Of a stretch of 64,000 bases of DNA, positions 19,414-52,399 are shown piece by piece. Numbering within the stretch: the stretch's first letter is position 1; each line of letters opens with the position of its first letter. The stretch is from a virus (taxonomy: Duplodnaviria > Heunggongvirae > Uroviricota > Caudoviricetes): IMG/VR virus record IMGVR_UViG_3300042888_001115, positions 11,067 through 75,066 of that record; one strand, given 5' to 3'. Made by a program: the position numbers and the translations under genes. Under the pieces are notes generated by a model. It saw only the letters and a list, made by a program, of their open reading frames with translations. It did no database searches and had not been told where the DNA came from.

Positions 19414-19818
19414 TTAAGCCCAGTACATTATAAGGATATTCTCGACCTGCTTATTACCTAATCCCATCGCCTTCAATTCACGTTTAACCGATGGTATAAA
19501 TTTCTTATCAATCTGCCCGTAGCTCATAGGGTAGTCAGAAATGATACGAGTAATTTGAGCAGACTCTTTTTTCAACATACTAAAAAACGCACACGCCTTT
19601 AAAATTTCGGGTTTGTTTCTACATACTACCTTATGCATACGACCCATAAAATCCTTAAACATTACTATTGAATTAGGTTTTACCGCGTTACTCATTTTAG
19701 TAGCAGAAAAATTAACATAAACAGGTCTCTCGTTACGAGCAGTACTATAAGCTTTGTCAGTAAATTCATTTGTCATTTTGTTATTCATATATGATTTTTT
19801 TATAATGTGAGGAGTCAA
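19414..19818 (-). CDS. hypothetical protein (track start is TTG inside the conserved leader; likely true start MNNKMT at 19788)
   Basis: N-terminal MTPHIIKKSYM is encoded by leader-repeat copy C. Confidence 0.45.
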   Translation of the reverse strand: MTPHIIKKSYMNNKMTNEFTDKAYSTARNERPVYVNFSATKMSNAVKPNSIVMFKDFMGRMHKVVCRNKPEILKACAFFSMLKKESAQITRIISDYPMSYGQIDKKFIPSVKRELKAMGLGNKQVENILIMYWA

Positions 19819-19930
19819 ACCTTCGACTCAATACATAAAGATAACACTATTTCGTGGACTTTTAACACGTTTTAGGTACTATTTTAAAAATTCTTTATTG
19901 ACTATCAACGAGTTACGTCACCAAAAATGT
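19811..19930 (-). repeat. 120-nt promoter/leader module, copy C
   Basis: Contains ATCAACGAGTTACG, the TTATCTTTATGTATTGAGTCGA block and a GACTCCTCACATTATAAAAAAATCATATATG leader. Confidence 0.55.
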
Positions 19931-20084
19931 GGGACCGGCATAAGTCATTGACGCTGAACCACTTACACAAGTCACTCAAAATCAATGACTTATGTATTTC
20001 ACCCCTTCATATTAGAAAAAATCTAAATATATTCGAATTTATTAGATAATTTTCATTTCAAAGCGGTGCTATTTTAAATAATAT

Positions 20085-20450
20085 CTAACGAAACAAATCT
20101 CGTTTACATTTCCATTTCAATTTATCCGCGAGTTCATTGGCTTGATTCTCTAATGGATTGTCCTGGTAATTATAAATTTCTGTATATTCGTAGTATTTCT
20201 TTGTACTTTGTTTGTAGTGTGCCCATTCATGTATAATAGTATGAATGATATCAATGACTGATTTGTGATTGCTTTTATATACACTAATTATATTATCTTC
20301 AAAATCATAATCGCCACAATCATTATCTGATGCAATCGTTGCCCACTCTAAGGCCGGCAATGTGTGTCTTCTATAATTCAGACCAGCATTACGTTTGCAC
20401 CAATTCATAACTCTTAGAGCATCCTTTCTTTTGAATTGTTTTATTGTCAT
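20085..20450 (-). CDS. HExxH zinc-metallopeptidase-like protein
   Basis: IIHEWAHYKQ motif, 121 aa. Confidence 0.4.
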   Translation of the reverse strand: MTIKQFKRKDALRVMNWCKRNAGLNYRRHTLPALEWATIASDNDCGDYDFEDNIISVYKSNHKSVIDIIHTIIHEWAHYKQSTKKYYEYTEIYNYQDNPLENQANELADKLKWKCKRDLFR

Positions 20451-20567
20451 TTCGGTCAGTTTTAAAATAAACGGGTTAGGTGGTCGCTATTTTGAAGGGG
20501 TAAATATAAAGGGAGTAACCAAGCAACCATTTTAGAATAGTATTTATTCTGTCCTAACCCGTTATAA

Positions 20568-20580
20568 CTAAGATACGATA
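20568..20580 (-). promoter_or_regulatory. promoter-like motif TATCGTATCTTAG
   Basis: Variant of the consensus inside the 480-nt noncoding region. Confidence 0.25.
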
Positions 20581-20931
20581 ATTTATTTAATCTACCAAAT
20601 TATATTGAATCTTTTTGTGTGGGGTATGTGTGTAAAAATAGTCTCTAAAAAATTTTGCGGTCCGACTGAATGGATGGATAAGGTCTAAATGCCGTTGTGA
20701 TACCGATTGATTACACTCACACCTCTTTGTAACCCTTATGTGTGTTGAATTGTGGGGGTAAGTGGGTATAAGTGGGAAATTATTGTACGATGGACCTTAT
20801 TATTGCTCTATTCGGTATCAATATACGAATTTAGGGATATGATACACTATTCCATTTGATTTGATACGGTCTAATTAATAATACTTTCATTAAATAAAAT
20901 CTAATTTAAGTTAGATTTTTGGGAATATTAT

Positions 20932-21126
20932 CTAATGATACGTCGGTAATACATAATGGATATCTAATTCGTTTAAGACACTTTGTATCATTGAATCACC
21001 TATTCCACTATTGGTTTTTGTCCTCTCTAAATAGTGGTCCACATACATTTGAGCCGTTACTACCTTACCATCCTTAGTGACTTCTATCTTAATGATACCA
21101 CTTTGATTTGTTATTTCGTTATTCAT
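20932..21126 (-). CDS. small hypothetical protein
   Basis: 64-aa ORF followed by a 9-bp hairpin at 20896-20920. Confidence 0.35.
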   Translation of the reverse strand: MNNEITNQSGIIKIEVTKDGKVVTAQMYVDHYLERTKTNSGIGDSMIQSVLNELDIHYVLPTYH

Positions 21127-21127
21127 A

Positions 21128-21610
21128 TTATTTATTTTTTAATGTACGGATATATTCTTTTGCTTCATCCTTAGAGTAATAAGAACCTTCTATATTCTTA
21201 TCTCTATATTGTGTTTGTGTTATTGAGATATTGATTGCCTCCATTGGATTACCATTATACCATTCTTTACTATGTGGACTATATGGGTAACCTAATTTAT
21301 ACCTACAATAATGTTTCATTCGTAATTCCTCTATTGCTATATCCTCTTTGGGTTGTAAGTATAACACATTCCATTCACCTACGGGCATTGAATGTTTATA
21401 AGTGTTTAATCGTTTAGTAAAATTTTCTTTGGATTCAACCATACCTACCTTAAACCATCCTTTCATTTCACTATTCTCTACTATATACAAATAACCATTG
21501 CCTCTATTGACTATGGTATTTCTATTCCTTATTCCTACATTGATATTCCTTACCTTATGTTTTATACGCCTATCCATTGTATCGTATATTGTTAATTGTG
21601 TTTTATTCAT
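21128..21610 (-). CDS. T5orf172/GIY-YIG-superfamily domain protein
   Basis: GYLYIVENSEMKGWFKVGMV...RLNTY resembles the T5orf172 core (GYIYIL...KIG.T...R). Confidence 0.5.
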   Translation of the reverse strand: MNKTQLTIYDTMDRRIKHKVRNINVGIRNRNTIVNRGNGYLYIVENSEMKGWFKVGMVESKENFTKRLNTYKHSMPVGEWNVLYLQPKEDIAIEELRMKHYCRYKLGYPYSPHSKEWYNGNPMEAINISITQTQYRDKNIEGSYYSKDEAKEYIRTLKNK

Positions 21611-21641
21611 ACTCTAAGTTAAGACTTTATTTCGATATTAC

Positions 21642-21962
21642 CTAATTATTCATTTGTAATATTAACTCTATATTGTGTATAAACATATCTTTCCAACGGA
21701 TTTGTGCAATGGTTAATTGTTTTCTACGTTGTGGCTCATTACTATTGTATAAGGTATAGTAGTTATATGATGTATTCGTTCCACCATTTACCTTATTCCT
21801 TTGTAGTATTAGTGATTCATCTACTATCCCTTTATTAGTAGAACGTATATGTATTTGATAATAGTCTTCGTATTCATATACACCTTCTATATTATACCCA
21901 TCAGTTGTAAGGCTTAATACCCTTTCACCTTTCAGTTTACTTCTATTATGTATTATTAGCAT
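21642..21962 (-). CDS. MLxIxN-family small protein
   Basis: N-terminal MLIIHNRSKLKGE. Confidence 0.45.
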   Translation of the reverse strand: MLIIHNRSKLKGERVLSLTTDGYNIEGVYEYEDYYQIHIRSTNKGIVDESLILQRNKVNGGTNTSYNYYTLYNSNEPQRRKQLTIAQIRWKDMFIHNIELILQMNN

Positions 21963-22064
21963 ATCCTTTACTTTATTAGTTTTATTATTTCTATATACAC
22001 TACTATCATTATTAGTGTTATTATCATTACGCTTATAGTTAGTGTTAGTAGTGACATAGTGTTC

Positions 22065-22298
22065 TTATACATTCCTTCCTTCTATACATAAACTACATAG
22101 ACCATCTGAATTTAATCTTATATGATGTTTAGTACAATAATCTATTTCTATACTATGTGTATTATATGTTGTATTATTATCTGAACTACCGCTATTATTT
22201 CCTTTGCCACTCTTTTCTCTTATCCAATTATACATCCAATCGTTTGTGTTATTCACATCAATTATTTTTATATCTTTTTGTGTGTATCTATAATTCAT
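22065..22298 (-). CDS. small Cys/His-containing protein
   Basis: CTKHH...CSLC possible Zn-binding. Confidence 0.35.
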   Translation of the reverse strand: MNYRYTQKDIKIIDVNNTNDWMYNWIREKSGKGNNSGSSDNNTTYNTHSIEIDYCTKHHIRLNSDGLCSLCIEGRNV

Positions 22299-22305
22299 AT
22301 CTTAT

Positions 22306-22461
22306 TTATTTTTTCCATTCACCACTCTTTAATAAGTTTGTTATATAATCCATACTTTGTAATGTAGTAAGGTATACGGGTGCATCATACGTTTTACCTT
22401 TGTATATTACATACGTCGGATGCCATACCATACTACCATTATCTAATTCTAATTTATTCAT
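22306..22461 (-). CDS. small hypothetical protein (51 aa, MNKLELDNGSMVWHPTYV...)
   Basis: ATG ORF not in the track, in the gap between neighbouring ORFs. Confidence 0.3.
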   Translation of the reverse strand: MNKLELDNGSMVWHPTYVIYKGKTYDAPVYLTTLQSMDYITNLLKSGEWKK

Positions 22462-22636
22462 ATTCACTTTCTATTAAATTATTCTTATGAATCCATTTAC
22501 TTAACTCTAAAATTAATTTAACACTCTTATCATCTAATCTTTTACTTTGATTGACTAACCTTTCAATGGATTCTTTACTCAATAGGATGTACTCGTCTAT
22601 ACCATCCATATTACTAACTCTATTTACTATATTCAT
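22454..22636 (-). CDS. small hypothetical protein
   Basis: 60-aa ORF. Confidence 0.35.
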   Translation of the reverse strand: MNIVNRVSNMDGIDEYILLSKESIERLVNQSKRLDDKSVKLILELSKWIHKNNLIESEYE

Positions 22637-22776
22637 ATTATCTACGTTTGATTTGTTTATTGATTATCTTATTAAGGTATATAGTTGATACCCTACTTGC
22701 CTTACCCCTTTGTCTTATACCCCATATTAAATTATTGATTAAGAATATACTCTTTATACTATGTGCTCTATTCATA

Positions 22777-23121
22777 TTAATTATCGTTTTCAATTATTGT
22801 TTTCAATTCCCATATCATACTATCCATCGTATAAATATTTTCTATTCTTATGATATATCGTCTCAATACTCCTATTCCAACTTCAATTAAGTTTATTACA
22901 TATTCATACTCACTTGCTTTGTCCGGCCTTTCCCTTTCAATCTTCATTGTCAATTCCTTACCTTGGTATTTGTATTTGAATGAGAATGGGTCTTCATGCC
23001 TTATAATCATTTCATATGCCGATTTGGTTTCCTTCATCCGCCATACCTTCCATGATTCGGTAAAAGAATGTGTTATAATACGTTCCCCTTTTAATTTATG
23101 ATAGTTTTGTATTGTTAGCAT
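22777..23121 (-). CDS. MLTIxN-family small protein (start trimmed to MLTIQNYHKLKGE)
   Basis: The track's N-terminal extension overlaps the upstream gene; the internal Met restores the family N-terminus and abuts the upstream stop. Confidence 0.45.
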   Translation of the reverse strand: MLTIQNYHKLKGERIITHSFTESWKVWRMKETKSAYEMIIRHEDPFSFKYKYQGKELTMKIERERPDKASEYEYVINLIEVGIGVLRRYIIRIENIYTMDSMIWELKTIIENDN

Positions 23122-23126
23122 AAGGT

Positions 23127-23405
23127 TTATATTATATTTGCCATAAAATGTGTCATAGTAAGTAGAAACTTTTGACAATCCATTACATCCTTTCTTTGTA
23201 CCCACATTTGTTGTCCCTCATACGTCATACAATAGTAATCCCTATGTGGATGGTGCCGTTGTGGTGGGTGTATACGGCTTAGAGTGACCTTATTTAGTGG
23301 GTATCCGTTATCAATCCAAAATACATATGCCCAATTCGTTGTCTCTACCGATATGGTTGCTTTCGTATATAATCTTATCCTATCTATATTATGTATTGTC
23401 AACAT
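23127..23405 (-). CDS. MLTIxN-family small protein
   Basis: MLTIHNIDRIRLY. Confidence 0.5.
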   Translation of the reverse strand: MLTIHNIDRIRLYTKATISVETTNWAYVFWIDNGYPLNKVTLSRIHPPQRHHPHRDYYCMTYEGQQMWVQRKDVMDCQKFLLTMTHFMANII

Positions 23406-23726
23406 TTATATTGTATTTAATATTTTCTCAATTTTATCCCTAAATTTATCCGGTGTACTTAAACTTTCTTTTGTATAGTGATACATCTGGCCGTCAACTT
23501 CAATTCCATAAAAACTACAATCCTTATTTTCAAGAGGATTAAAAACTATCGTTGCCGTTTTATGTAAGGTTATATTTTTTCTTACCAAATGTGGTGGTGC
23601 GACCTCTCTTATTGAGAAATGTGTAACCTCACTTGTAGTATTATCCCAACCTTTGAAATACCATCCTTTGCCTTTTACATTTAATGAATACCCATTTATT
23701 TTATGGATGTTTTTAAGTATTAGCAT
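23406..23726 (-). CDS. MLTIxN-family small protein
   Basis: MLILKNIHKINGY. Confidence 0.5.
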   Translation of the reverse strand: MLILKNIHKINGYSLNVKGKGWYFKGWDNTTSEVTHFSIREVAPPHLVRKNITLHKTATIVFNPLENKDCSFYGIEVDGQMYHYTKESLSTPDKFRDKIEKILNTI

Positions 23727-24030
23727 CTTCGTCTTTTTTTATATTTGCAATTATACAATTCATATAATAGATTAGCCCTACGGGTGATATATCAATAGGG
23801 CGTATTAGGACCTCATATAATTTACCATTACGATTTGTTTTCATTCTATACATGCCCATTACTTCATCCTTATTCCTATCAAATGTAACGTACCATTGTG
23901 TTGATTTGTAATGGCCTACATTAGTTAGTACAAATTGATATTCGGTAGGGGCTTCAATTGCTTCATACACTTCCCACTTATCCGTTATTTGTTTGCCGTT
24001 AATTTTTTCTATGTTTCTTATCTTTAGCAT
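23713..24030 (-). CDS. MLTIxN-family small protein
   Basis: MLKIRNIEKINGK. Confidence 0.5.
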   Translation of the reverse strand: MLKIRNIEKINGKQITDKWEVYEAIEAPTEYQFVLTNVGHYKSTQWYVTFDRNKDEVMGMYRMKTNRNGKLYEVLIRPIDISPVGLIYYMNCIIANIKKDEDANT

Positions 24031-24031
24031 A

Positions 24032-24337
24032 TTATTTCATTATCATTATCATTTCAACCGCTCTTATAAAAGTTTGTTTATTACTTATTTGTTCTACCTT
24101 TAATAACATACTATTAATAGGAGTAGCTTCATTCCATATTATATAACCCTTATCCGTTTTAAATCTATTCAATACAATTTTAATATCACTATACGTTTTA
24201 TTTATATGTCTCAAATGAATATGATATTGTTCGTTACCCTCTTGATTCCAACTCCATGTGTTAAGTACATAATAAACTCCCGTACCACCATCAATTCTTT
24301 GATTGATTAGTGTAAACATATTTTCTATTGTAAGCAT
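24032..24337 (-). CDS. MLTIxN-family small protein (start trimmed to MLTIENM)
   Basis: Family motif at the internal Met. Confidence 0.45.
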   Translation of the reverse strand: MLTIENMFTLINQRIDGGTGVYYVLNTWSWNQEGNEQYHIHLRHINKTYSDIKIVLNRFKTDKGYIIWNEATPINSMLLKVEQISNKQTFIRAVEMIMIMK

Positions 24338-24385
24338 TGTATATATAGTTTTTACTATCAAAAAATTTAGGTAACGACACTTTTT

Positions 24386-24404
24386 CCCCCAACCCCCGCC
24401 CGCG
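24386..24404 (-). repeat. G/C-rich island (gene-sense CGCGGGCGGGGGTTGGGGGG)
   Basis: Followed in gene-sense by GTCGTTACCTAAATTTTTTGATAGT, as in the copy at 26557. Confidence 0.4.
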
Positions 24405-24728
24405 TTATTTACTGAAATTATTTAATTGTCCGCCTAACATTCCCGGAAACATTTTAAAAGATAATAAACCTTTTGTTAGTGTTACATAATCACTGCTTTG
24501 GTCATTATACATTCGCCATTCGTTTAATGTACTACTAAATTCGTTGTATCTTAATAGTTTAAAGTTTACATACTTTGGATGCTTTACACCAAATGTAGTA
24601 CCATAATCAAATCTTACTTTAATACTATAATCATGCTTTCGTTCCTCTATACTCATTACTACCCAATGTGCGTGTGGTGTATGTATTTTATTTCCTTCTA
24701 TCTTTTGTATGTTATCTATTGTTAGCAT
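24405..24728 (-). CDS. MLTIxN-family small protein
   Basis: MLTIDNIQKIEGN. Confidence 0.5.
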   Translation of the reverse strand: MLTIDNIQKIEGNKIHTPHAHWVVMSIEERKHDYSIKVRFDYGTTFGVKHPKYVNFKLLRYNEFSSTLNEWRMYNDQSSDYVTLTKGLLSFKMFPGMLGGQLNNFSK

Positions 24729-24740
24729 ATCATTTTTGTT

Positions 24741-25055
24741 TTAACCTAATGCAACTAATCTTAACTTATCTAAAAACTTATCTATATTACGAATATCTAA
24801 TAGGTTTATATAAAGTACGTGTCCAGTACTACTATGTAATTTATAATCATAGTTACCATCACGTCCCACCTCATCCCTATCTAATGTGACCGTTATTGCC
24901 CATTTTCTATTAGTTAATTCAAATATGTATTTATGGTTTTTTGTAGTGAACATTGGTACATCCATATCAAATTTTTCCTCAACCCTTTCTACATAAAAGT
25001 TTTTCTTACCCAATGTTTTATGTTGTATCTTATTTATGTTTTGTATTCGTAGCAT
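24741..25055 (-). CDS. MLTIxN-family small protein
   Basis: MLRIQNINKIQHK. Confidence 0.5.
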   Translation of the reverse strand: MLRIQNINKIQHKTLGKKNFYVERVEEKFDMDVPMFTTKNHKYIFELTNRKWAITVTLDRDEVGRDGNYDYKLHSSTGHVLYINLLDIRNIDKFLDKLRLVALG

Positions 25056-25058
25056 TAC

Positions 25059-25310: not shown

Positions 25311-25311
25311 A

Positions 25312-26476: not shown

Positions 26477-26496
26477 ACTATGAATTAGTTTATACT

Positions 26497-26509: not shown

Positions 26510-26556
26510 TATATATGAAACTATCAAAAAAAAATTAGGTTAAACGACCTTCGCTC

Positions 26557-41585: not shown

Positions 41586-41891
41586 TTATTTGTTTGTTAT
41601 TATATCGTAATCGTACACTATTTCATTTAAGAATTTAATAAAACTAAATGGGTCAACCAATGTTTTAGAATCTATATCATATCTAATTGATTTACCACCA
41701 TCTACTGCTAATCGTCCTTTAAATTTGTTTTTATCAAATTCATCTCTATCAAGTGTATATGAACAATCATTATCATAATTTTCATGTACAAAATTAAATC
41801 TATAAAAATCAGGTTCAGTTTGTATTTTCTTTATCTCAACCTGCATTGCATTGATTGGATATAACTTATCTATGTTTTTTATTGTTAGCAT
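41586..41891 (-). CDS. MLTIxN-family small protein
   Basis: MLTIKNIDKLYPI. Confidence 0.5.
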   Translation of the reverse strand: MLTIKNIDKLYPINAMQVEIKKIQTEPDFYRFNFVHENYDNDCSYTLDRDEFDKNKFKGRLAVDGGKSIRYDIDSKTLVDPFSFIKFLNEIVYDYDIITNK

Positions 41892-41892
41892 A

Positions 41893-42186
41893 TTATCTTA
41901 CTTTTATTGGTTTTCTATATTTTTCTATTAAATAAATTATATCCGATATCAGTATTGATTTATTTTCCACAATAGTATTGGAAATCTTAAAGTATTTTGT
42001 TGGACTATATCTTATACTATATTTACCCCCATCACGTTCTTTCATCAAGTCAATTCGGAAATATCTATTAATATCCGTATCTAAAACTGCAAATGAATAT
42101 GAATTGGTAAAATCCTTAACTGAATGTATTTTATATTTGCCCAGTACTTCACCTATTACTTTATCTATATTGTGTATCTTTAGCAT
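41893..42186 (-). CDS. MLTIxN-family small protein (start trimmed to MLKIHNIDKV)
   Basis: Internal Met abuts the ligase stop. Confidence 0.45.
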   Translation of the reverse strand: MLKIHNIDKVIGEVLGKYKIHSVKDFTNSYSFAVLDTDINRYFRIDLMKERDGGKYSIRYSPTKYFKISNTIVENKSILISDIIYLIEKYRKPIKVR

Positions 42187-42187
42187 A

Positions 42188-43327
42188 TTATTCGTATTCG
42201 TTTCTGTCAATATTAATTACATATGGAAAACGGGGTATACCATCAGGTGTTAAATTAAAATACTTAATCGTTGCTTGCTTACCGATTAGTTTCTTTTTAC
42301 TCTTTAACATCTCAGCCGTTTCATCCCAAGTTCCTTTTACATTTGATTTGAAAGGTTTACCATCAATCGTTTCAAATACCATATAACCAGCAGTTCCAGT
42401 TCTATTACCTTCACCCTCTACGATATCTAAAATAGTATATTCATCATCAACAAACGATTTATGTTTTAATAAGTTCTTACTTCGTTTGTTTTCATACTTA
42501 CCATTCGTTCTTAACATCTGACCTTCGTAACCTTTCTCTACATACCCACCATATAATTCCATAACTTCATCTTCATTATCAACTTTATATGTTTGTACTA
42601 TTCTACAATACTTACCTACTTGTGAAAATGTTTCAAATAGTATTCCTAAATCATACATTCTTTTTACAAAGTTATTATCTGAACTAGGTAAATCGTATAT
42701 GTGATACTCTATACTTTTTTCACTTTCAATTAAATCCTCTTTAGTTGGTTTTGTTTTTTTAACCAAAGATACAATCTTATTGAAATCATTAGCGAACTTA
42801 TCGGCATATAACTCACCATCTAATATCAAATCAGGATTCATTACAAATACATGCCATAAGCTATACATGATATGTTGCGCTGAAAGAATAGGTTTACCAT
42901 TTCTGCTAAACATACCATCTTTTGTCACTATACAACGAATACCATCTAACTTAGCTTGCGAATAAATTGGATATGTAACCTTATCTTTACTATCTTCCCA
43001 TTTAGCGGCTAACATTGGTTCAAAGTATTGTGTTTTGTTTATGTGTTTGATATTCTCAAAGTAACCACTCTCTAACTTCTTTGTTCGTTTAGCTACCGCC
43101 TCTGCCATCGTTTGTTCTTTATCCGTAGTTTCATTTGCTCTACCAATATTCTTACCATAACAAATTGTCCACTCATTCGTAGTAATAGCACCGCCAACTT
43201 GTCCACTATGGGTTCGGTATTTATTACCTACTACTTCAATTGTCCATTCTTGCGTTGCACCGGTCTTTGTTTTTTTGTAAATAGTTTCTAATTTCATATT
43301 ATAAATTTTTGTTATATTAGGAGTCAT
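42188..43327 (-). CDS. ATP-dependent DNA ligase (T7-type minimal ligase)
   Basis: EPMLAAKW...QAKLDGIRC (motif I KxDGxR), OB-fold C-terminal region, 379 aa. The first 11 codons (MTPNITKIYNM) lie in the triplicated leader, so an alternative start at 43294 (MKLETIY) is possible. Confidence 0.85.
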   Translation of the reverse strand: MTPNITKIYNMKLETIYKKTKTGATQEWTIEVVGNKYRTHSGQVGGAITTNEWTICYGKNIGRANETTDKEQTMAEAVAKRTKKLESGYFENIKHINKTQYFEPMLAAKWEDSKDKVTYPIYSQAKLDGIRCIVTKDGMFSRNGKPILSAQHIMYSLWHVFVMNPDLILDGELYADKFANDFNKIVSLVKKTKPTKEDLIESEKSIEYHIYDLPSSDNNFVKRMYDLGILFETFSQVGKYCRIVQTYKVDNEDEVMELYGGYVEKGYEGQMLRTNGKYENKRSKNLLKHKSFVDDEYTILDIVEGEGNRTGTAGYMVFETIDGKPFKSNVKGTWDETAEMLKSKKKLIGKQATIKYFNLTPDGIPRFPYVINIDRNEYE

Positions 43328-43344
43328 TCTCTCGACTCAATACA

Positions 43345-43355
43345 TAAAGATACGA
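43345..43355 (-). promoter_or_regulatory. promoter -7-like motif GTCGTATCTTTATGTATTG
   Basis: Inside copy A, about 28 nt upstream of the first ATG. Confidence 0.4.
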
Positions 43356-43410
43356 CTTTATATTGGATTGGCAATGCCCTAAGTGAACTAATTTTGAAAG
43401 TTTTTATTGG

Positions 43411-43426
43411 GAATCAACGAGTTACG
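43411..43426 (-). promoter_or_regulatory. upstream element ATCAACGAGTTACG (UAS-class motif)
   Basis: Member of the ATCAAYKRGTTASG family, about 60 nt upstream of the -7 motif. Confidence 0.4.
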
Positions 43427-43472
43427 CCAATATAACCCTAACATATTAGGTATTTTTAATATATGATACCTA

Positions 43473-43797: not shown

Positions 43798-44073
43798 TTA
43801 TATTAATTCATCTATTAAAAATCGGATAAAGATATCTCTATCCCCTATACTCTCTATTGGTAGGTAGTGTCTATTACCTGTCTCTTGGCAATACATAAGA
43901 TAATCACCATTGGATGTCTTAACCCTACCAATGCTAAAGTTAAACATATCAAAGGGTGAGCCATTATGTACTACTTTAATAAGATAGTTATCCTTCGACT
44001 TAGTCACATAGTGTATCTTCCAATGGCCAACGTATGTCCCCGTAAGAGAATCTATGTTTTTTATTGTAAGCAT
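43798..44073 (-). CDS. MLTIxN-family small protein (start trimmed to MLTIKNIDSL)
   Basis: The track has a duplicated motif, MLNLKNYNMLTIKNIDSL; the internal Met abuts the upstream stop. Confidence 0.45.
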   Translation of the reverse strand: MLTIKNIDSLTGTYVGHWKIHYVTKSKDNYLIKVVHNGSPFDMFNFSIGRVKTSNGDYLMYCQETGNRHYLPIESIGDRDIFIRFLIDELI

Positions 44074-44742: not shown

Positions 44743-44745
44743 ACA

Positions 44746-45674: not shown

Positions 45675-45677
45675 AAC

Positions 45678-46727: not shown

Positions 46728-46745
46728 AACTTATTGTTTTTAATT

Positions 46746-46997: not shown

Positions 46998-47056
46998 GAT
47001 GTTGTTTTATCCACTCTCTAAGAATGAATAGAACTTTTGTTATTATTGTTTTCATA

Positions 47057-47434
47057 TTACCACCAACTTGTGTAATATACTGTCTTACCATTTGCTATTG
47101 CTTCCCTTGCTTTAGTAACAAATAACAAATCGTTTTCATTTTCTTCATCACCATTAGAACTCTCACCAAAAAAGAAACCGGATGTATCAGGCAAATTACC
47201 TTCTCTAATATCCGCTTCTAATGCATCTAAATCAAAAGTATCTAATACAACACAATCACCATTAAAACTATCCGATGTTCCACCCTTTGTATCATATATA
47301 GATTGCATCCATCCATGTAAGTTAGGATGTTTTCTCCAATAGTGAACTTCCTCTGGTTTAAAATTCTTAGTTTCAAAGTCTACATCCGTTTTCGGTTTTG
47401 CGTTAGTAGAAAACGCGTACATGTCTAATCCCAT
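47057..47434 (-). CDS. hypothetical protein
   Basis: 125-aa ORF. Confidence 0.45.
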   Translation of the reverse strand: MGLDMYAFSTNAKPKTDVDFETKNFKPEEVHYWRKHPNLHGWMQSIYDTKGGTSDSFNGDCVVLDTFDLDALEADIREGNLPDTSGFFFGESSNGDEENENDLLFVTKAREAIANGKTVYYTSWW

Positions 47435-47438
47435 AATT

Positions 47439-47777
47439 TTACTTTTTATTTTTTATTGATACAATATGTTTACAATCTTTACCTCGTCCGAAACCATGTG
47501 CCGGACAACTACAACTCCAAAATCCTTCATCATTTACTACTTTGTATATGTTACCTTTACTACCCGCCACTTTAAACTCTTTAAGTTTAGTTTTTATTAG
47601 TTTAGGTTTTTTACCATACTCAATTTTATCCCACATCCTTTCTAATTCATTCCAACTATACCATCTATTTACTTCTATCCACCCGCTGCTTTTTTCACCA
47701 CCGGTACATACAATCCATGTCTTACCGGATAAAGGTGATTCAAAACAAATAGGTGGTAATACTGATTTGATTCTCAT
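47439..47777 (-). CDS. SWIM zinc-finger protein
   Basis: WSCSCPAHGFGRGKDCKHI (CxCx10CxH). Confidence 0.55.
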   Translation of the reverse strand: MRIKSVLPPICFESPLSGKTWIVCTGGEKSSGWIEVNRWYSWNELERMWDKIEYGKKPKLIKTKLKEFKVAGSKGNIYKVVNDEGFWSCSCPAHGFGRGKDCKHIVSIKNKK

Positions 47778-47787
47778 AACTTATTTT

Positions 47788-48123
47788 TTAATATTGATAA
47801 TCTGCAATCTTTTCAACTGCGGTGTCAATCGTGTCAATCAAACTATCAATGTAAACCATATCAAATGTTTTCTTAATTGAACTATCTGCATTAATTAAGT
47901 GTACTTCAAATGTATCACTCCAATCTAATGTAATTAATACCCATCCTTTGTGATGATGTCCACTAACTTTAAATAATAAACCTTTATTATCTAAACTACT
48001 CATTTCACACATTCCCCAACTCCATACAACAGGACCAACGGAACGAATATTGGTTAATAACTCTGATACATTAAACTCTCTTTTAAGTAAAGAGAATGAA
48101 ACTGATTTGATTTTACTTGTCAT
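47788..48123 (-). CDS. hypothetical protein
   Basis: 111-aa ORF. Confidence 0.45.
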   Translation of the reverse strand: MTSKIKSVSFSLLKREFNVSELLTNIRSVGPVVWSWGMCEMSSLDNKGLLFKVSGHHHKGWVLITLDWSDTFEVHLINADSSIKKTFDMVYIDSLIDTIDTAVEKIADYQY

Positions 48124-48268
48124 AACTTATTTATTTTCTTTGAATACTCTTTGTTTATTATTATTGTTTCTATATCCGTATTAGTGGTCAATTGTGTAAT
48201 ATGTGAATAAGATAATTTGTTTATATTTACCCTATCACCTAACTTTGTCACTATGGTTATATCGTAGT
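48120..48268 (-). CDS. small hypothetical protein (52 aa, MKTYYDITIVTKLGDRV...)
   Basis: ATG ORF not in the track; its TGA overlaps the downstream ATG (ATGA). Confidence 0.3.
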
Positions 48269-48277
48269 ATGTTTTCA

Positions 48278-48682
48278 TTAGTCTAAATGATTTCTACCAC
48301 CGGCACCCATTGTACCAAATGATGCCGTACTCATAAATGTTTCAATACCATGTCTCTTAAATGGTTTTTCTTTCTTAGGTTTGATACCCATCTTACGATT
48401 GTATCTTTGTGTGAATAACAATAACAAATCATAGAACCTATCTTTCCAAAACTCTATTGCTTTTGTTTCTACTTTATCGTACCTATCAACACGCTTTGCT
48501 CTACCATACTTAGTAACAATAGGCTCACCCCAAACAGGTGTATAACATTTCACTTTTGTTTCACCTTCCATATCCTTCTTTGTTAAGTATGTTAAGGCTT
48601 CATTACATAAGTCTAAGGCTTCTTTATGATAACCTGCTTTGCTCATCCATTTTGATTTCTCAATCGATTCTATTAAGTTCAT
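48278..48682 (-). CDS. hypothetical protein
   Basis: 134-aa ORF. Confidence 0.45.
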   Translation of the reverse strand: MNLIESIEKSKWMSKAGYHKEALDLCNEALTYLTKKDMEGETKVKCYTPVWGEPIVTKYGRAKRVDRYDKVETKAIEFWKDRFYDLLLLFTQRYNRKMGIKPKKEKPFKRHGIETFMSTASFGTMGAGGRNHLD

Positions 48683-48683
48683 A

Positions 48684-48899
48684 TTAATTATTTTTAAAGT
48701 TTAAGTTAGAATATTTTTTCATATCGTATTGTCTCATTAAGTCACCCGCATTTAGTTTCAATGTTGGGTCCTCATATGATTGAGATATATTTAACTCCCG
48801 CATCCAATTCTGAAATTCTAAACTGCCCATTGTTTCTTCTCGTTGTTCTTCAATTTCTCTCATTTTAAGAAAGAATTTCATTTTAATTGTATCTAACAT
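48684..48899 (-). CDS. hypothetical protein
   Basis: 71-aa ORF. Confidence 0.4.
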   Translation of the reverse strand: MLDTIKMKFFLKMREIEEQREETMGSLEFQNWMRELNISQSYEDPTLKLNAGDLMRQYDMKKYSNLNFKNN

Positions 48900-48900
48900 T

Positions 48901-49095
48901 TTATTTGTTTTTATTTTTAAAAATTGCTTCTGTAATTATTAAGTAATACCATCTCGGTAAGTAAAATAAACATTTAATGAATACATAAAGATTGTATTTT
49001 ACATCATGTTCTAATGCTCTACCTTTCATTTGTTTTTTAATTGTATATAGTAACGGAAATAACGCTACAAAATATACTATCATAAATGTTCTCAT
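48901..49095 (-). CDS. small two-TM membrane protein
   Basis: MRTFMIVYFVALFPLLYTI hydrophobic. Confidence 0.4.
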   Translation of the reverse strand: MRTFMIVYFVALFPLLYTIKKQMKGRALEHDVKYNLYVFIKCLFYLPRWYYLIITEAIFKNKNK

Positions 49096-49096
49096 A

Positions 49097-49783
49097 TTAA
49101 CATCCCCTCAATGCATACTTGCCGTTTAATTGTTTAGCTAAATACCAACCACGCTTTGCTGAATGTTTTGTTAATGATTGATGATGATGAATAAAACTGC
49201 CACCATTCAATATCGTTTTGTTACCCCTAATATCAACATCATAGTACGTTTTCAATTCAGTAAAACTTGCATCAAATCTATTATTCATAAACTGCCATAT
49301 TTGTTTTGTAATCTGCCCATATGGTTGCTTAGAACGTGGATGAACTTTTGGTGTGTTTGTCACTACGGCTTTTTGTTTGTTTTGATAATATAAATTCATT
49401 ATTGTTTGATACACATTACTACCTTTACCTTGTATCGTATTGTAATATCCATCTGCTAAACCCAATTTCATATTACCTAACATACGAGCAATAACTACAT
49501 TATTATCATTCAACTTCATATTCTGTCTATGAATACCTTTTGAACTATTGTAGTTTGGATTCTTAGGATGCAAATAGATGTCAATGTATGTTGCTTTACG
49601 CCAAGGTACATCATTTTGTTTACCAACACTCCAATTTGTTACTACTGATTTTCGGTTATTATGTCTACCTTTCAATACTACCCAACCAAAGATTTGCTCT
49701 AATACTTTTTTAATTTCGATAACTTGCTCCTCACTTTTCATTGGGATAGTTGCGATAAAGGTTTTTGTTCTATTGATACTCAT
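49097..49783 (-). CDS. hypothetical basic protein
   Basis: 228-aa ORF. Confidence 0.45.
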   Translation of the reverse strand: MSINRTKTFIATIPMKSEEQVIEIKKVLEQIFGWVVLKGRHNNRKSVVTNWSVGKQNDVPWRKATYIDIYLHPKNPNYNSSKGIHRQNMKLNDNNVVIARMLGNMKLGLADGYYNTIQGKGSNVYQTIMNLYYQNKQKAVVTNTPKVHPRSKQPYGQITKQIWQFMNNRFDASFTELKTYYDVDIRGNKTILNGGSFIHHHQSLTKHSAKRGWYLAKQLNGKYALRGC

Positions 49784-49793
49784 GTTGTTTGTT

Positions 49794-50144
49794 TTATTTT
49801 ATATAAGAAGGTCCATACTCACCCCATTGTGCAGTTCCATCTATAATGTTACCACGTGCGTGTTTTGCTGGTGCTTTCCAAGTTGCCGGTTTCAATAAGT
49901 CACCTTTCTTAATTGGTGCACCTTTTAAATCACCATCAACTCTACTAATGAAACCCCAACAAGTAGTTCCAGTCCATAAACGGATATACTTATTACCAAT
50001 TTCAACTACTAACTCCTTATATTGTCTAACCATATCAGCAGTAGTATAATACTTTAATCGTTTTGCATTCACTTCATCAATAAATGTGGCAACAATAGGA
50101 TTGCCTTTAAGATACTCTATTGCTTTTGCATCGGTTGTTCTCAT
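49794..50144 (-). CDS. hypothetical protein
   Basis: 116-aa ORF. Confidence 0.45.
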   Translation of the reverse strand: MRTTDAKAIEYLKGNPIVATFIDEVNAKRLKYYTTADMVRQYKELVVEIGNKYIRLWTGTTCWGFISRVDGDLKGAPIKKGDLLKPATWKAPAKHARGNIIDGTAQWGEYGPSYIK

Positions 50145-50145
50145 A

Positions 50146-50634
50146 TTATCTATTTTGGTTTAAGGTAAATAATTTTTTATTGTTATATCTTTGTTCATCT
50201 TGTTTTATAGTATCTGCATAATTATTGAATGCACTATAATCTCTTTGTTTAGCATCTTCATCCGCATCTTCGTTTGATATTACTCTATACTCACCATTTA
50301 CTATTCTATCATCTTCGGTAAAACCCGCACCATCATATTCAGGTTCAATTTCCTCATCAATAGCATTTTTAAGAATATCACGTTCTCTATCGTATTGTTC
50401 AGCATTAAACTTACTTACATACTCTAATGCTTCATCTAAGCTTTTACACTCATCATATAAAGCAGTTTGTATTTTATCTCTCAATACTTCGGATTTCTTT
50501 AATTCATTAGTAAAGTATTCTATACTACTAATATTTGTACCCAACTCTTTTAAGTGAGATTCATTTTGTTCTACTAACTTACTAGTTGCATAATACAACT
50601 GATTCAATTCCAATAATGTTAATTCTAAATTCAT
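50146..50634 (-). CDS. coiled-coil acidic protein
   Basis: 162-aa ORF. Confidence 0.45.
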   Translation of the reverse strand: MNLELTLLELNQLYYATSKLVEQNESHLKELGTNISSIEYFTNELKKSEVLRDKIQTALYDECKSLDEALEYVSKFNAEQYDRERDILKNAIDEEIEPEYDGAGFTEDDRIVNGEYRVISNEDADEDAKQRDYSAFNNYADTIKQDEQRYNNKKLFTLNQNR

Positions 50635-50664
50635 ATGTTATAGTTTTTAATTTAATTAATTTAT

Positions 50665-50898
50665 TTAAGCCGCTCTTAACCATTGTTGATAAATTACATC
50701 GTAGTCACATCCTTTATTAGATGCCAACTTCTCAAACAGGCGTTCTCTTATAATACTATCGTACACCCATAGGTAATCATATACATCACAATAGGTATTT
50801 AAGGTTTTCCATAGACCATCAAAGGTAGCCATTGGATTAATACCTTTACCCATGTCATCGGTTGGGTAATTCTTTAGATAAAATTCTCTAATACTCAT
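50665..50898 (-). CDS. hypothetical protein
   Basis: 77-aa ORF. Confidence 0.4.
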   Translation of the reverse strand: MSIREFYLKNYPTDDMGKGINPMATFDGLWKTLNTYCDVYDYLWVYDSIIRERLFEKLASNKGCDYDVIYQQWLRAA

Positions 50899-50910
50899 AT
50901 TTTATAGTTT

Positions 50911-51049
50911 TTATTTATTTTTACGAGCCCAATTCTTTTGAGCTTTTTTCTTTTTGTTTGGTACTACCTTTGGTTTATACCTACCATCAAACACACCCGC
51001 TTCTTTTTGGTCACTTCGTTTGATAGTTCGTTCATACGCCGTTTTCATT
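50911..51049 (-). CDS. small basic protein (45 aa, MKTAYERTIKRSDQKEAGVFDGRYKPKVVPNKKKKAQKNWARKNK)
   Basis: ATG ORF not in the track; its start overlaps the stop of the preceding small ORF. Confidence 0.3.
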
Positions 51050-51156
51050 ATCTATCTTTTAATCTTACAAACACTTCTTTGATTTTTGGTGTTTCTAATC
51101 TTTTCAAAAATTTCTCTAATTTTTTATCTAAGAATTTCTTTTGTTTCTTTGTCATA
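51049..51156 (-). CDS. small basic protein (35 aa, MTKKQKKFLDKKLEKFLKRLETPKIKEVFVRLKDR)
   Basis: ATG ORF not in the track, in the 258-nt gap. Confidence 0.3.
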
Positions 51157-52005
51157 CTATTTTACTTTTACTAATTTACTTTGAGCGGCTTTTGTTATCA
51201 TTGGATTAACATCATACACACTAAACTTGCTATCCATAGGGATAATGAATTTGTTATGTGCAGTATCAATCTTAGTTCTAACAAACTTAAACTTCAATCC
51301 TACAATTACACCCGTCTCATCTAAGTGTCTCATATCGTATGCATCACCATCAATTACTTTATAACCCATAAATGATATTGGTAATTGTTTACCTTCAAAT
51401 ACCATAGCAACTCTACCTTTATTATTTTCTAATAACTCTAATGATTGTAACATATTGTAACCACTAAAAGAATAAGTCAAATCATAGTTAGAATACTTAT
51501 CTAACAACTTAAAGCGATTAGCAACCTTAGTATAATCATAAAATGTCACTTCGTTGAATATATCGAAAATCACTTTACCATTGAATTTAAACAATGTTGG
51601 CTGAATATCGGATGTGCCATTTAATCTAACTGAAAATGTAAAACCTTTAGCAATTGCATCAGCTTTAGCTTTACTAATCTCAGCTACTAACCAACCCATA
51701 AAGAACTCTCTATGCTCAAAGAACAATTTAGTTTTTTTAATACGAGCTTTATTGATTGCGTTTTTCTTAACGTCAATTCTATTGTGTCCACTTTCAGTTA
51801 AACACGCTTCTCTACATTCAGCCGTTGAACCCGGACAAACATTGTAACCACTTTGTTCAGCAGGAGCAAGATACAATATATAAGTCATTTCATTGTACTT
51901 TAAACCTTTAGCAATTTTAGATGAACTTGCTACACTACCTAAATAAGATAAACCAGTTAACTTTTTAGCATTACCAATTGTTGTAAACTTCATTGTGTTA
52001 TTCAT
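51157..52005 (-). CDS. hypothetical protein
   Basis: 282-aa ORF. Confidence 0.5.
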   Translation of the reverse strand: MNNTMKFTTIGNAKKLTGLSYLGSVASSSKIAKGLKYNEMTYILYLAPAEQSGYNVCPGSTAECREACLTESGHNRIDVKKNAINKARIKKTKLFFEHREFFMGWLVAEISKAKADAIAKGFTFSVRLNGTSDIQPTLFKFNGKVIFDIFNEVTFYDYTKVANRFKLLDKYSNYDLTYSFSGYNMLQSLELLENNKGRVAMVFEGKQLPISFMGYKVIDGDAYDMRHLDETGVIVGLKFKFVRTKIDTAHNKFIIPMDSKFSVYDVNPMITKAAQSKLVKVK

Positions 52006-52029
52006 ATTATTATTTTTAAATTTTAGAAA

Positions 52030-52185
52030 TTATTTACTATCGTTATGTTTAAATACTATTTCAAACTTTCTATCTTCAATAGAAAAACTATCTAAAACGA
52101 TTTGTAATTGTTTAGAAAGATTATCTAATTTAGACTCATCCGTAAATTCAAACTCAATGTTGAACTGAAATGTTACATTACTCAT
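52030..52185 (-). CDS. small hypothetical protein (start trimmed to MSNVTFQ)
   Basis: The track's N-terminal MSPYITKIYNM is leader-repeat copy B. Confidence 0.35.
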   Translation of the reverse strand: MSNVTFQFNIEFEFTDESKLDNLSKQLQIVLDSFSIEDRKFEIVFKHNDSK

Positions 52186-52233
52186 ATTATAAATTTTTGT
52201 TATATAAGGACTCATTCTCTCGACTCAATACAT

Positions 52234-52244
52234 AAAGGTACGAC
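52234..52244 (-). promoter_or_regulatory. promoter -7-like motif GTCGTACCTTTATGTATTG
   Basis: Inside copy B. Confidence 0.35.
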
Positions 52245-52308
52245 TTTATATTGGACTTTGAACAGTCAAAGGTAACTATTTTTAGGTTTTTCAAAGATTT
52301 TTGACTGA

Positions 52309-52324
52309 CTATCAATGAGTTACA
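52309..52324 (-). promoter_or_regulatory. upstream element ATCAATGAGTTACA (UAS-class motif)
   Basis: Family ATCAAYKRGTTASG. Confidence 0.35.
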
Positions 52325-52399
52325 TATATGATTTTTTTATATATGGGTAAAAAGGTGTAGACATAGATAACCCATTGAGAATCAATAAGTTATAACTCT

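Follow-up and report, generated by a model that had tools for sequence, protein, structure and literature searches.

The closest described counterparts of the repeat analysed here are the promoter-early stem-loop (PeSL) elements of T4-type phages (Arbiol et al. 2010, PMC2839356; Comeau et al. 2014, PMC4122927), in which a G/C-rich stem-loop, usually located inside the promoter or upstream of it, acts as terminator or attenuator, and indel junctions map to the loop or to the stretch from the -10 to the ATG. Stem-loops that stabilise mRNA from its 5' end are known from the ompA and papA leaders of E. coli and from the 5' stabilisers of B. subtilis (reviewed in PMC3997798). In T4, the A+U-rich sites of RegA lack structure and contain both a poly(A) tract and the AUG, and RegB cleaves GGAG in early leaders (PMC3014915).

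Our window, the whole 64,000-nt stretch analysed, comes from an uncultured phage that probably infects a member of the Bacteroidota, and holds exactly three full copies of a promoter cassette, all on the minus strand (19778-19916, 43287-43425 and 52175-52323). They lie where a preliminary description had placed a 120-nt module, upstream of the DNA ligase, a small (51-aa) ORF and ORF 19414, and were recovered by a covariance model at 93.7 (19778-19873), 92.9 (43287-43382) and 92.7 bits (52175-52270), with E about 1e-12; the next-best match, at 35 bits, has only the promoter core in common with the cassette. The 17-mer TTTATGTATTGAGTCGA occurs exactly three times; when as many as 3 mismatches are tolerated, the number of matches rises to 6, compared with an expectation of 0.47 from shuffles. 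The repeat is thus real, while its size had been underestimated: the conserved unit runs from the GTAACTCGTTGAT half-operator (43425, 52323, 19916) to the true ATG (43297, 52185, 19788), roughly 130 bases of near-identical sequence, and in all three copies similarity stops at this second ATG, the abrupt end previously noticed after 11 codons. Copy 2 has a 10-nt insertion separating operator from promoter, and copy 3 differs from copy 1 at about 14 positions in loop and leader. The features, numbered by cassette, are as follows.

43406-43425, minus strand: cassette 1, proximal operator-like half-palindrome GTAACTCGTTGATTCCCAAT; -7 box 72 nt downstream
43372-43375, minus strand: cassette 1, degenerate -33 element ATTG (TTTGG in relatives), 19 nt before the -7 box
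43345-43352, minus strand: cassette 1, -7 box TATCTTTA, Bacteroidota TAnnTTTG type (numbering of PMC6847099)
43321-43338, minus strand: cassette 1, hairpin GAGTC-GAGAGAAT-GACTC, -5.9 kcal/mol, predicted to lie 2-3 nt after the transcription start
43298-43320, minus strand: cassette 1, A-rich leader CTAATATAACAAAAATTTATAAT, unstructured, non-coding
42188-43297, minus strand: ATP-dependent DNA ligase CDS, true start ATG 43297-43295, MKLETIYKK...
52367-52420, no strand assigned: pair of complete operators, each a 25-bp palindrome, upstream of cassette 2
52304-52323, minus strand: cassette 2, proximal half-palindrome GTAACTCATTGATAGTCAGT; -7 box 82 nt downstream, with a 10-nt insertion that copies 1 and 3 lack
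52233-52240, minus strand: cassette 2, -7 box TACCTTTA
52209-52226, minus strand: cassette 2, degenerate hairpin GAGTC-GAGAGAAT-GAGTC, 3' arm like copy 1 and unlike orthologous cassettes
52186-52208, minus strand: cassette 2, A-rich leader, like copy 1 and unlike orthologous cassettes
52030-52185, minus strand: 51-aa ORF, MSNVTFQF..., true start 52185
19941-20000, no strand assigned: operator palindromes ATAAGTCATTGA...TCAATGACTTAT upstream of cassette 3
19897-19916, minus strand: cassette 3, proximal half-palindrome GTAACTCGTTGATAGTCAAT; -7 box 72 nt downstream
19836-19843, minus strand: cassette 3, -7 box TATCTTTA
19812-19829, minus strand: cassette 3, hairpin GAGTC(GA)-AGGT-(TT)GACTC, 7 pairs with wobbles, -7.5 kcal/mol, TTG inside
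19789-19811, minus strand: cassette 3, A-rich leader
19414-19788, minus strand: 124-aa protein of unknown function, MNNKMTNEF...

Like PeSL (PMC2839356, PMC4122927), these cassettes are repeated composite motifs of about 100 nt that combine a strong host-type promoter with a stem-loop, end at the start codon of the downstream gene and precede small genes of unknown function in variable regions; the two systems also share indels between close relatives whose junctions fall within the cassette, here in the leader and near the loop. They differ in their Bacteroidota -33/-7 promoter and leader without a Shine-Dalgarno sequence, in a stem-loop that is short, contains A/U, lacks a U-tract and lies within the transcript, in the attached operator phased by the helical turn, and in number, with only 3 copies in 64 kb versus about 50 per T4-type genome.

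The 11 shared "codons" are an untranslated leader, and nothing is prepended to the proteins. The peptides previously read from them (MTPNITKIYNM, MSPYITKIYNM and (TTG)TPHIIKKSYM) are as reported. All 38 ligase homologues begin MKL(E/D/P)..., with unrelated sequence upstream of that start, which in the window is the second ATG (43297-43295, MKLETIYKK), and alignments with annotated ligases of cultured phages begin at residues 1-6 of this short form. In the relative L001 the same pseudo-peptide, there MTPHITKNHNM, stands before another protein, and the ligase ORF opens with MKLETIYKK. Among 45 distinct cassette variants surveyed from metagenomes, the upstream AUG is absent in 30, a stop intervenes in one and the frame is lost in one, leaving an open, in-frame upstream reading in 13; the distance from -7 box to ATG is 47 nt in 32, 46 in 10 and 41-42 in 3. 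Ligase homologues and leader variants agree on the second ATG, the start that had been thought probable. The alternative offered alongside it, a prepended common peptide or translational coupling, is not supported, given the 1-nt length variation (46/47), the stop and out-of-frame cases, and the unrelated downstream proteins in relatives. That the upstream ATG or TTG is used, either adding a common short peptide or translating a small upstream ORF, draws on the open and in-frame state of all three window copies and the 13 variants, and on some public gene calls that use the long form, but in addition to the missing start codons, the stop and the frameshift, it faces leader indels of 1 nt rather than multiples of three, third codon positions conserved equally with the others, an extension absent from all ligase homologues, and a peptide that moves with the cassette, not with the gene; it is already largely refuted, and we regard it as extremely improbable. 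The A-rich leader, about 25 nt without a Shine-Dalgarno sequence, ends at the real ATG, and a Shine-Dalgarno-like core is present in just 8 of the window's 99 genes, with an A peak at -11 to -13.

The -7-type promoter already noticed inside the shared block has the Bacteroidota form TTTGG (-33), N19-20, TATCTTT(A/G) (-7), a consensus and numbering taken from Flavobacterium johnsoniae, an organism other than this host (PMC6847099). In most relatives the -7 box TATCTTTA/G has TTTGG 19-20 nt upstream; in all three window copies the -33 element is degenerate. The promoter core recurs in eight further intergenic promoters of the window. By this consensus, defined in another organism, the invariant A of TAT would be the first transcribed nucleotide, with the hairpin following 2-3 nt later.

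The full operator is a 25-bp palindrome, TAACTCGTTGATAATCAACGAGTTA, and the cassette site is half of it, only one palindrome half being well conserved at the proximal position. Its distance from the -7 box moves in steps of one helical turn, at 62 nt in 21 cassettes, 72/73 in 30 (26 scored directly, and 4 whose nearest match, at 29, was spurious and whose real site lies at 72) and 82 in 4. At class I activator-dependent promoters of E. coli, CRP-type sites are centred near -61.5, -71.5 and -82.5. The present arrangement resembles these in its 10-bp steps (62/72/82 nt), in a site centre near -62/-72/-82 by Flavobacterium numbering and in the weak -33 elements of the window copies, and departs from them in the half-conserved proximal site and in that the putative regulator could equally be a repressor looping to upstream operators. 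A search for an operator-binding protein identified none. Co-regulation of the three downstream genes, as first suggested, is plausible because they have a common promoter and a phased operator, but they do not form a fixed set.

The hairpin comprises 4-6 bp and begins 2-3 nt after the predicted start site, the remainder of the leader being predicted unpaired. A GAGTC/GACTC stem enclosing ATG had been described for all copies; this stem is confined to copies 1 and 3. Copy 2 has GAGTC...GAGTC, so that a G-G mismatch falls at its centre, and in copy 3 the stem contains TTG instead of ATG. Compensatory changes demonstrate selection on this structure: stems covary (GAGTC/GACTC, GGGTT/GACCC, GGGTTA/TAACCC, TACC/GGTA, TATTCC/GGAGTA), diverged cassettes have unrelated stems at the same position, and one pair of the first alignment is AU 10 times and GC 7 times with no one-sided changes. 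In a further alignment (A5) of 60 distinct sequences, which are phylogenetically related and were fitted to the model, 86% of cells were paired versus 78.8 ± 0.9 in shuffles and 21 were double changes versus 7.4 ± 2.7 (0/500 shuffles reaching either value), and slid registers gave at most 71% and at most 5. The energy is weak, -4.1 to -7.5 kcal/mol in most variants and -2.1 in the weakest, and single-sequence tests gave no excess stability over shuffled sequence (z -0.9 to +0.2). Since the hairpin is broken in window copy 2, L039, L043, L112, L126 and L002, it must be dispensable for some genes. As in the known 5' stabilisers, a small hairpin a few nucleotides from the predicted 5' end is followed by an unstructured leader, and structure is conserved rather than stem sequence; unlike in those, the loop sequence is also conserved and the hairpin is missing in some copies. 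Conservation of the loop (GAGAGAAU-like) and the CACAU motif exceeds the needs of a pure stabiliser.

We think it reasonably probable that the copies are complete and portable cassettes for co-regulated expression, with a 5'-terminal hairpin that would stabilise the mRNA. A dimeric DNA-binding regulator would occupy the candidate half-palindrome, whose centre lies some 62, 72 or 82 bp ahead of the start site and keeps to one face of the helix, and a host sigma-A-type promoter (-33 TTTGG, 19-20-nt spacer, -7 TATCTTT(A/G)) would then drive transcription, presumably from the invariant A of TAT, 2-3 nt ahead of the 4-6-bp hairpin. The hairpin may shield the message from 5'-end-dependent decay by offering RppH or RNase E/G/J-type enzymes fewer unpaired 5' nucleotides than they need for entry. 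The unstructured, Shine-Dalgarno-less A-rich leader of about 25 nt would lead to the real ATG as an efficient Bacteroidota-style initiation region, and the operator protein would turn the whole gene set on or off jointly. To our knowledge, 5'-end-dependent decay is uncharacterised in Bacteroidota.

The preliminary description had instead proposed that the hairpin sequesters the first in-frame ATG; in a Shine-Dalgarno-less host this would mask a decoy AUG and prevent initiation 30 nt too early. AUG is indeed depleted near start codons in Bacteroidetes, presumably for want of Shine-Dalgarno guidance (PMC6847099), and spans loop and 3' arm in 15 of the 45 variants, but most of the 30 variants lacking it retain the hairpin, copy 3 has TTG, and AUG is retained despite a broken hairpin in window copy 2, L039, L043 and L126; the enclosed ATG is incidental, and masking is highly unlikely. 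That the hairpin has no function, the copies resembling one another through recent duplication and gene conversion of the promoter region only, would fit the evident gene conversion, the unremarkable energy and the persistence of broken versions across several genomes; at least 5 unrelated stems at one position, equally distant from the -7 box, and changes that are compensatory, not one-sided, make this unlikely.

A more serious, if still doubtful, possibility is that hairpin and CACAU/A-rich leader form an RNA operator through which a phage protein, a translational repressor or site-specific endoribonuclease, controls all cassette-driven mRNAs post-transcriptionally, as RegA and RegB control early mRNAs in T4 (PMC3014915), where an A/U-rich initiation region or purine motif, a feature the present leaders also have in common, is shared by many early leaders and recognised by one phage protein. 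The loop purines (GAGAGAAU, GAAAAAGU, GGAGAG) and the leader CACAU(A/U)A...A-run...UAUAAUAUG are conserved even where the stem has been replaced, and leader length is nearly fixed. However, our motif occupies a hairpin loop some 30 nt ahead of the AUG, a search gave no homologue of the T4 proteins, RegA-like or other RNA-binding protein, and the 124-aa protein (ORF19) has no match in Pfam, PHROG or PDB; several cassettes that lost the hairpin retain the leader, and recent common ancestry with gene conversion could account for the conservation. The 23-nt invariant core AGTCGTATCTTTATGTATTGRGT might alternatively be a promoter for a phage-encoded RNA polymerase or sigma-like factor, with the hairpin belonging to the region that this enzyme or factor recognises or where it initiates. 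Between about -15 and +8 the core is conserved more tightly than a host promoter requires, the -33 elements of the window copies are poor and several large window proteins have no recognisable family; against this, the core is the Bacteroidota -7 consensus, correctly spaced from TTTGG in most relatives, only the -33 and -7 elements are common to other window promoters, and no RNA polymerase gene was detected, so we consider such a promoter improbable.

Returning to the portable cassette, recombination between cassettes and their transfer from gene to gene among related phages are evident. The commonest gene behind the cassette in relatives encodes the 124-aa product of ORF 19414. Among 38 ligase loci, even the closest relatives (L001 and L088, about 90% identical) do not have the cassette adjoining the ligase; they carry two intervening genes, both missing in the window, and the junction falls in the 25-nt leader. 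The 51-aa ORF is absent in L043/L095 and L188, where the cassette adjoins the GP88-like gene. Compared with close relatives, indel boundaries coincide with two of the window's three cassettes. Because about 130 nt are near-identical and end at the ATG, the cassette also serves as a recombination substrate, moving genes in and out behind it. Copy 2 is a mosaic: its upstream part has 1 difference from its orthologues versus 9 from copy 1, and its hairpin 3' arm and leader have 2 differences from copy 1 versus 7-8 from the orthologues.

The three regions named in the preliminary description align on the minus strand, which carries all the long ORFs of this window (G+C 30%), from a GTAACTCGTTGAT motif to an ATG, past which the similarity ends. 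We call the unit a cassette (~130 nt: operator half-site, promoter, hairpin and A-rich leader); copies 1, 2 and 3 precede the DNA ligase gene, a 51-aa ORF and ORF 19414 (ORF19). The repeat is real, but the length of 120 nt originally assigned to it is too short, since conservation continues for ~70-80 nt upstream of the -7 box. A covariance model built from 39 related cassettes and run over the window with all filters off scored 93.7, 92.9 and 92.7 bits at 19778-19873, 43287-43382 and 52175-52270, and its next match (6978-7050, 35 bits) comprised the promoter core only, without hairpin or leader; thus, with the rest of the window scanned, there are exactly three full copies in the 64 kb, the number first reported. 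The 17-mer TTTATGTATTGAGTCGA likewise occurs exactly three times, and six times when up to 3 mismatches are allowed, vs. 0.47 expected from shuffles. Scans of the whole window gave no Rfam 15 match at gathering score and no tRNA. A reading as a MITE or homing site was rejected: terminal inverted repeats and target duplications are absent, and both the orientation and the distance to the ATG are fixed.

The eleven codons shared by the copies had been taken as probable 5'-UTR with the real start at the second ATG or, alternatively, as a prepended common peptide. The first view is borne out by the ligase homologues, by a survey of leaders and by the arrangement at a related locus. Ligase homologues at 38 loci in related sequences (41-90% identity) all start at MKL(E/D/P)(T)IYKK or no more than two residues away, the sequence upstream of that start being unrelated to the cassette, and in cultured phages the ligases begin to align at residues 1-6 of the short form. 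At L001, which together with L088 is the closest relative of our ligase locus (~90% identical), the ligase ORF begins MKLETIYKK and the cassette lies ~650 nt upstream, ahead of a different protein, where ORF calling yields an analogous pseudo-extension (MTPHITKNHNM-MRKITKEAV...). Among 45 distinct leaders, collected by pattern scans of IMG/VR and metagenome contigs plus the covariance model, an upstream AUG is lacking in 30, in frame and open in 13, followed by a stop in one and out of frame in one. The -7 box stands 47 nt from the ATG in 32 of them, 46 nt in 10 and 41-42 nt in three, so that leader length changes by single nucleotides and not by codons. The conserved start codon, frame and codon-like substitution pattern of an N-terminal extension or upstream ORF were not found, and a prepended peptide on the cassette genes is essentially excluded. 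The conservation at third positions and its abrupt stop at the ATG arise because the cassette moves and recombines as a unit. We therefore assign the following starts.

True start codons behind the cassettes
43297-43295, minus strand, ligase (369 aa), copy 1
52185-52183, minus strand, 51-aa ORF (51 aa), copy 2
19788-19786, minus strand, ORF19 (124 aa), copy 3

Automatic gene calls push the start of the first gene after each cassette into the leader: the window ligase would become 379 aa instead of 369 aa, and public calls for the ORF19 family give 124, 134 and 140 aa, the longer ones starting within the cassette.

The promoter has a -7 box TATCTTTA, with TACCTTTA in copy 2 and TATCTTTG in diverged relatives. 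The Bacteroidetes consensus for sigma-A (sigma-ABfr) promoters, from F. johnsoniae, comprises a -7 element TAnnTTTG spanning -12 to -5 and a -33 element TTTG (PMC6847099); the cassette box conforms to the former (TAHHTTTG), though its final G is A in the window. Most relatives have TTTGG(C/T) 19-20 nt upstream of the -7 box, where TTTG is expected at about 19-21 nt, and in the window copies this position is degenerate (ATTG, TGTT and TGTT). A TAT after the -7 box is invariant in all variants and stands where the start is expected, about 5 nt past the element; transcription would start at or beside its A, if the F. johnsoniae numbering carries over to the presumed host. Eight further promoters of the host type, with -7 box TAT(C/A)TTTA, were found; TTTG occupies the -33 zone in seven, and the hairpin is absent from their short, plain leaders.

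Further host-type promoters
63192, minus strand, intergenic
60330, minus strand, intergenic
58307, minus strand, intergenic
32877, minus strand, intergenic
32294, minus strand, intergenic
30135, minus strand, intergenic; only ~5 nt left ahead of the ATG
26504, minus strand, intergenic
7020, minus strand, intergenic; without TTTG in the -33 zone

Copy 2 holds an extra perfect -7 consensus, TACCTTTG (52267-52274, minus strand; TTTG 17 nt upstream), 34 nt upstream of its own cassette -7 box; it is also present in the related locus L043 and may form a tandem promoter.

After the hairpin the leader reads (C)UCACAU(A/U)A, an A-run and UAUAAUAUG, and is predicted to be unpaired; A occupies -3 and -12/-13, but -6 is U. 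A Shine-Dalgarno-like core was seen in 8 of the 99 window genes, where A peaks at -11 to -13 (67-78% at -12 and -11) and 62% have T at -1. A-12/A-13 has been reported for the Bacteroidetes initiation context (PMC6847099). We infer a host among the Bacteroidota, which would fit the few Shine-Dalgarno cores and the upstream A peak.

Arrays of a full 25-bp palindrome, TAACTCGTTGATAATCAACGAGTTA / TAACnnnTTGATAATCAAnnnGTTA, precede the cassettes and some other promoters and are probably the operators of one dimeric regulator.

Palindrome arrays
7063-7088
~19941-20000
52367-52420
60363-60439
63236-63314

In relatives, two to five palindromic sites stand ahead of every cassette, and one half-palindrome is integral to the cassette itself. 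Across 58 distinct upstream regions the half-palindrome lies 62 nt from the -7 box in 21, 72/73 nt in 30 (26 scored directly, and four more whose nearest match, at 29, was spurious and whose real site was at 72) and 82 nt in four. These distances differ by helical turns, with the centre near -62, -72 or -82, the geometry to be expected of a protein that has to face RNA polymerase or a partner when bound; displacement by integral helical turns only is the pattern of class I activator sites. A loose half-site pattern is not enriched in the window (29 vs. 20 in shuffles), only full palindromes and their positions being informative. PHROG and Pfam scans of 30 window proteins returned ligase domains, the GP88-like family, a CobS/AAA-like protein, a cREC_REC domain and a GIY-YIG fragment, with no DNA-binding or helix-turn-helix candidate near the operators. 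A separate inverted repeat, TAGGTAT-N12-ATACCTA (43447-43472, minus strand), without a T-run, is found where the gene upstream of cassette 1 ends and is kept in L001 and L088.

The hairpin starts 2-3 nt past the invariant A, with a stem of 4-6 bp and a purine-rich loop of 8-10 nt, and unrelated stems occupy its position.

Stems at the same position in the cassette (related loci in brackets)
GAGTC/GACTC; GGGT(T)/(G)ACCC
GGGTTA/TAACCC (L015, L032); TACC/GGTA (L048, L005)
TATTCC/GGAGTA (L021); TGAGA/TCTCA (L055)

Compensatory stem changes thus occur naturally among relatives. In a first alignment of 18 sequences, 10 have A-U and 7 have G-C as the second stem pair, and one-sided changes are absent. 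In 60 distinct sequences, which are related and whose alignment was fitted to the model, 86% of cells are paired vs. 78.8 +/- 0.9 in shuffles and 21 show double changes vs. 7.4 +/- 2.7 (0 of 500 shuffles reaching either value), while slid registers do not exceed 71% pairing and 5 double changes. The independent, unrelated stems at one position are, in our judgement, a stronger argument for the hairpin than these alignment statistics, and such comparisons show the predicted hairpin to be structurally constrained. Its folding energy is about -4 to -7.5 kcal/mol in most variants and -2.1 in the weakest, unexceptional vs. shuffles of single sequences, and it has been lost in window copy 2 and in L039, L043, L112, L126 and L002. 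Neither strand carries the U-tract of an intrinsic terminator, a role we rejected; we also discarded an outer stem, TATGT/ACATA, because its 5' arm shares bases with the -7 box and should therefore be absent from the transcript.

In relatives the cassette is followed by members of at least ten gene families, the commonest being the ORF19 family and the GP88-like family (MxxMKFTTIG...). At cassette 1, L001 and L088 carry two genes (99 and 112 aa) between the cassette ATG and the ligase that the window is without, and the 25 nt before our ATG align to both flanks of that two-gene segment. The 51-aa ORF lies between cassette 2 and the GP88-like gene in the window and in L039, L112 and L126; in L043/L095 and L188 the cassette directly adjoins the GP88-like gene. 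Copy 2 is a mosaic, its upstream 30 nt following its orthologues (one difference from L039, nine from copy 1) and its 3' arm and leader following copy 1 (two differences, vs. 7-8 from the orthologues). The broken hairpins in L039, L112, L126 and L043 look like products of a crossover within the loop: their 5' arm is of the GAGTC type and their 3' arm is GGTAGTCAC, as found in L048. Judged by sequence comparison, these indels and chimeric cassettes in close relatives show that cassettes recombine.

The nearest described system is the promoter-early stem-loop (PeSL) cassette of T4-type phages, a repeated promoter and stem-loop that ends at the ATG of variable small genes and recombines within the loop or between promoter and ATG (PMC2839356; PMC4122927). 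Circular excision products (mini-circles) are a further PeSL trait. Ours is likewise a host-type promoter within a repeated ~100-nt motif ending at the downstream ATG, and it likewise recombines, with indels and chimeric cassettes in related genomes. The PeSL stem-loop, however, is a G/C-rich terminator or attenuator within or near the promoter, whereas here it is a weak transcribed 5' hairpin of 4-6 pairs, downstream of the -7 box and with no U-tract after it; the promoter type also differs, Shine-Dalgarno sequences are absent and a phased operator is present. The cassette acts, like a PeSL, as recombination linker and expression module but is not a PeSL member, since the terminator-type stem-loop is missing. 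Promoter-leader cassettes appear to be agents of gene gain and loss also beyond the proteobacterial T4-like phages in which PeSLs were defined. Among the reports listed by one full-text literature search (phage, Bacteroidetes, early promoter, stem-loop, intergenic), none described a comparable cassette in phages of Bacteroidota, whose transcription and translation signals are, to our knowledge, almost undescribed. We regard the finding as a solid regulatory module and a useful annotation correction, not a new principle; its compact, comparatively validated parts (phased operator, -33/-7 promoter, covarying 5' hairpin and fixed-length leader lacking a Shine-Dalgarno sequence) could be reused as an expression module.

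Overall, the comparisons show a repeated non-coding promoter-leader cassette with a phased operator and a constrained hairpin, subject to recombination, and we consider the following account of how it works fairly probable as a whole. Host RNA polymerase would start at the A after the -7 box; the nascent 5' end would fold with no more than 3 nt unpaired, hindering 5'-end-dependent decay; the A-rich unstructured stretch would recruit ribosomes without a Shine-Dalgarno sequence; and a dimeric regulator at the operators would switch the cassette genes together. Decay would be hindered because RppH and RNase E-type enzymes require single-stranded 5' ends (PMC3997798), and the start of the stem, 2-3 nt after the invariant A, falls within the 0-4 unpaired 5' nucleotides of a stabilizer only if the predicted start site is right. 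We propose the stabilizer role, taken by itself, tentatively and with some doubt.

The main rival to stabilization makes the leader hairpin an RNA operator bound by a phage protein, as with T4 RegA/RegB, which would account better for the conservation of the loop and for the CACAU motif; we think it unlikely. We give similarly little credence to a broader scheme, a phage regulon for a Shine-Dalgarno-less host that would join a DNA operator phased by helical turns to an RNA operator (5' hairpin, purine loop and CACAU/A-rich leader) bound by a phage protein, and would double as a recombination linker shuffling accessory genes; if true, it would be a Bacteroidota-phage counterpart of the T4 PeSLs with an added post-transcriptional layer. 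The original proposal was that the hairpin hides the first in-frame ATG. Copies 1 and 3 preserve the GAGTC/GACTC stem invoked for it, but copy 2 has GAGTC...GAGTC instead, copy 3 has TTG in place of the enclosed ATG, and two thirds of the variants lack that ATG altogether, making such a role very improbable.

The ligase region had no megablast match among 50,697 phage records, and there is no cultured close relative; tblastn found ligases only below 48% identity, in an uncultured phage and in phages of Caulobacter, Sinorhizobium and other alphaproteobacteria. For ORF19, an AlphaFold2 model from a shallow alignment was unusable (pLDDT 51) and a profile search of PDB sequences found nothing, leaving a RegA-like repressor, suggested by similar size, unsupported. 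The 714-aa and 615-aa proteins, examined as candidates for a hidden RNA polymerase, had no match in PDB sequence searches. Just downstream of ORF19, a 109-aa ORF (18942-19271, minus strand) is a possible truncated homing endonuclease, with weak similarity to the GIY-YIG domain of the SegE type. The GP88 family protein (PF17338; phrog_1617, function unknown; 282 aa, 51157-52005, minus strand) directly follows the cassette in many relatives, and a 145-aa protein (63309-63746, minus strand) has a cREC_REC domain (cyclic-phosphate processing receiver, E 9.5e-22). Paralogous ~100-aa proteins beginning MLxIxNI(D/E/N)(K/S/R) start at 44073, 43796, 42186, 41891, 25055, 24030 and 23405 (minus strand), and the conserved 5' ends of their genes make up the window's largest family of direct repeats; L001 is missing two of the members (41586-42210) and has another between its cassette and its ligase. 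At four related loci (L054 2525-2602, L066 8709-8786, L060 and L064) the promoter core and first hairpin half (GGGTCGAGAGAG, GAGTTTAGAGAGAG) are joined to entirely different downstream sequence, with operator palindromes in place of the A-rich leader in L054 and L066.
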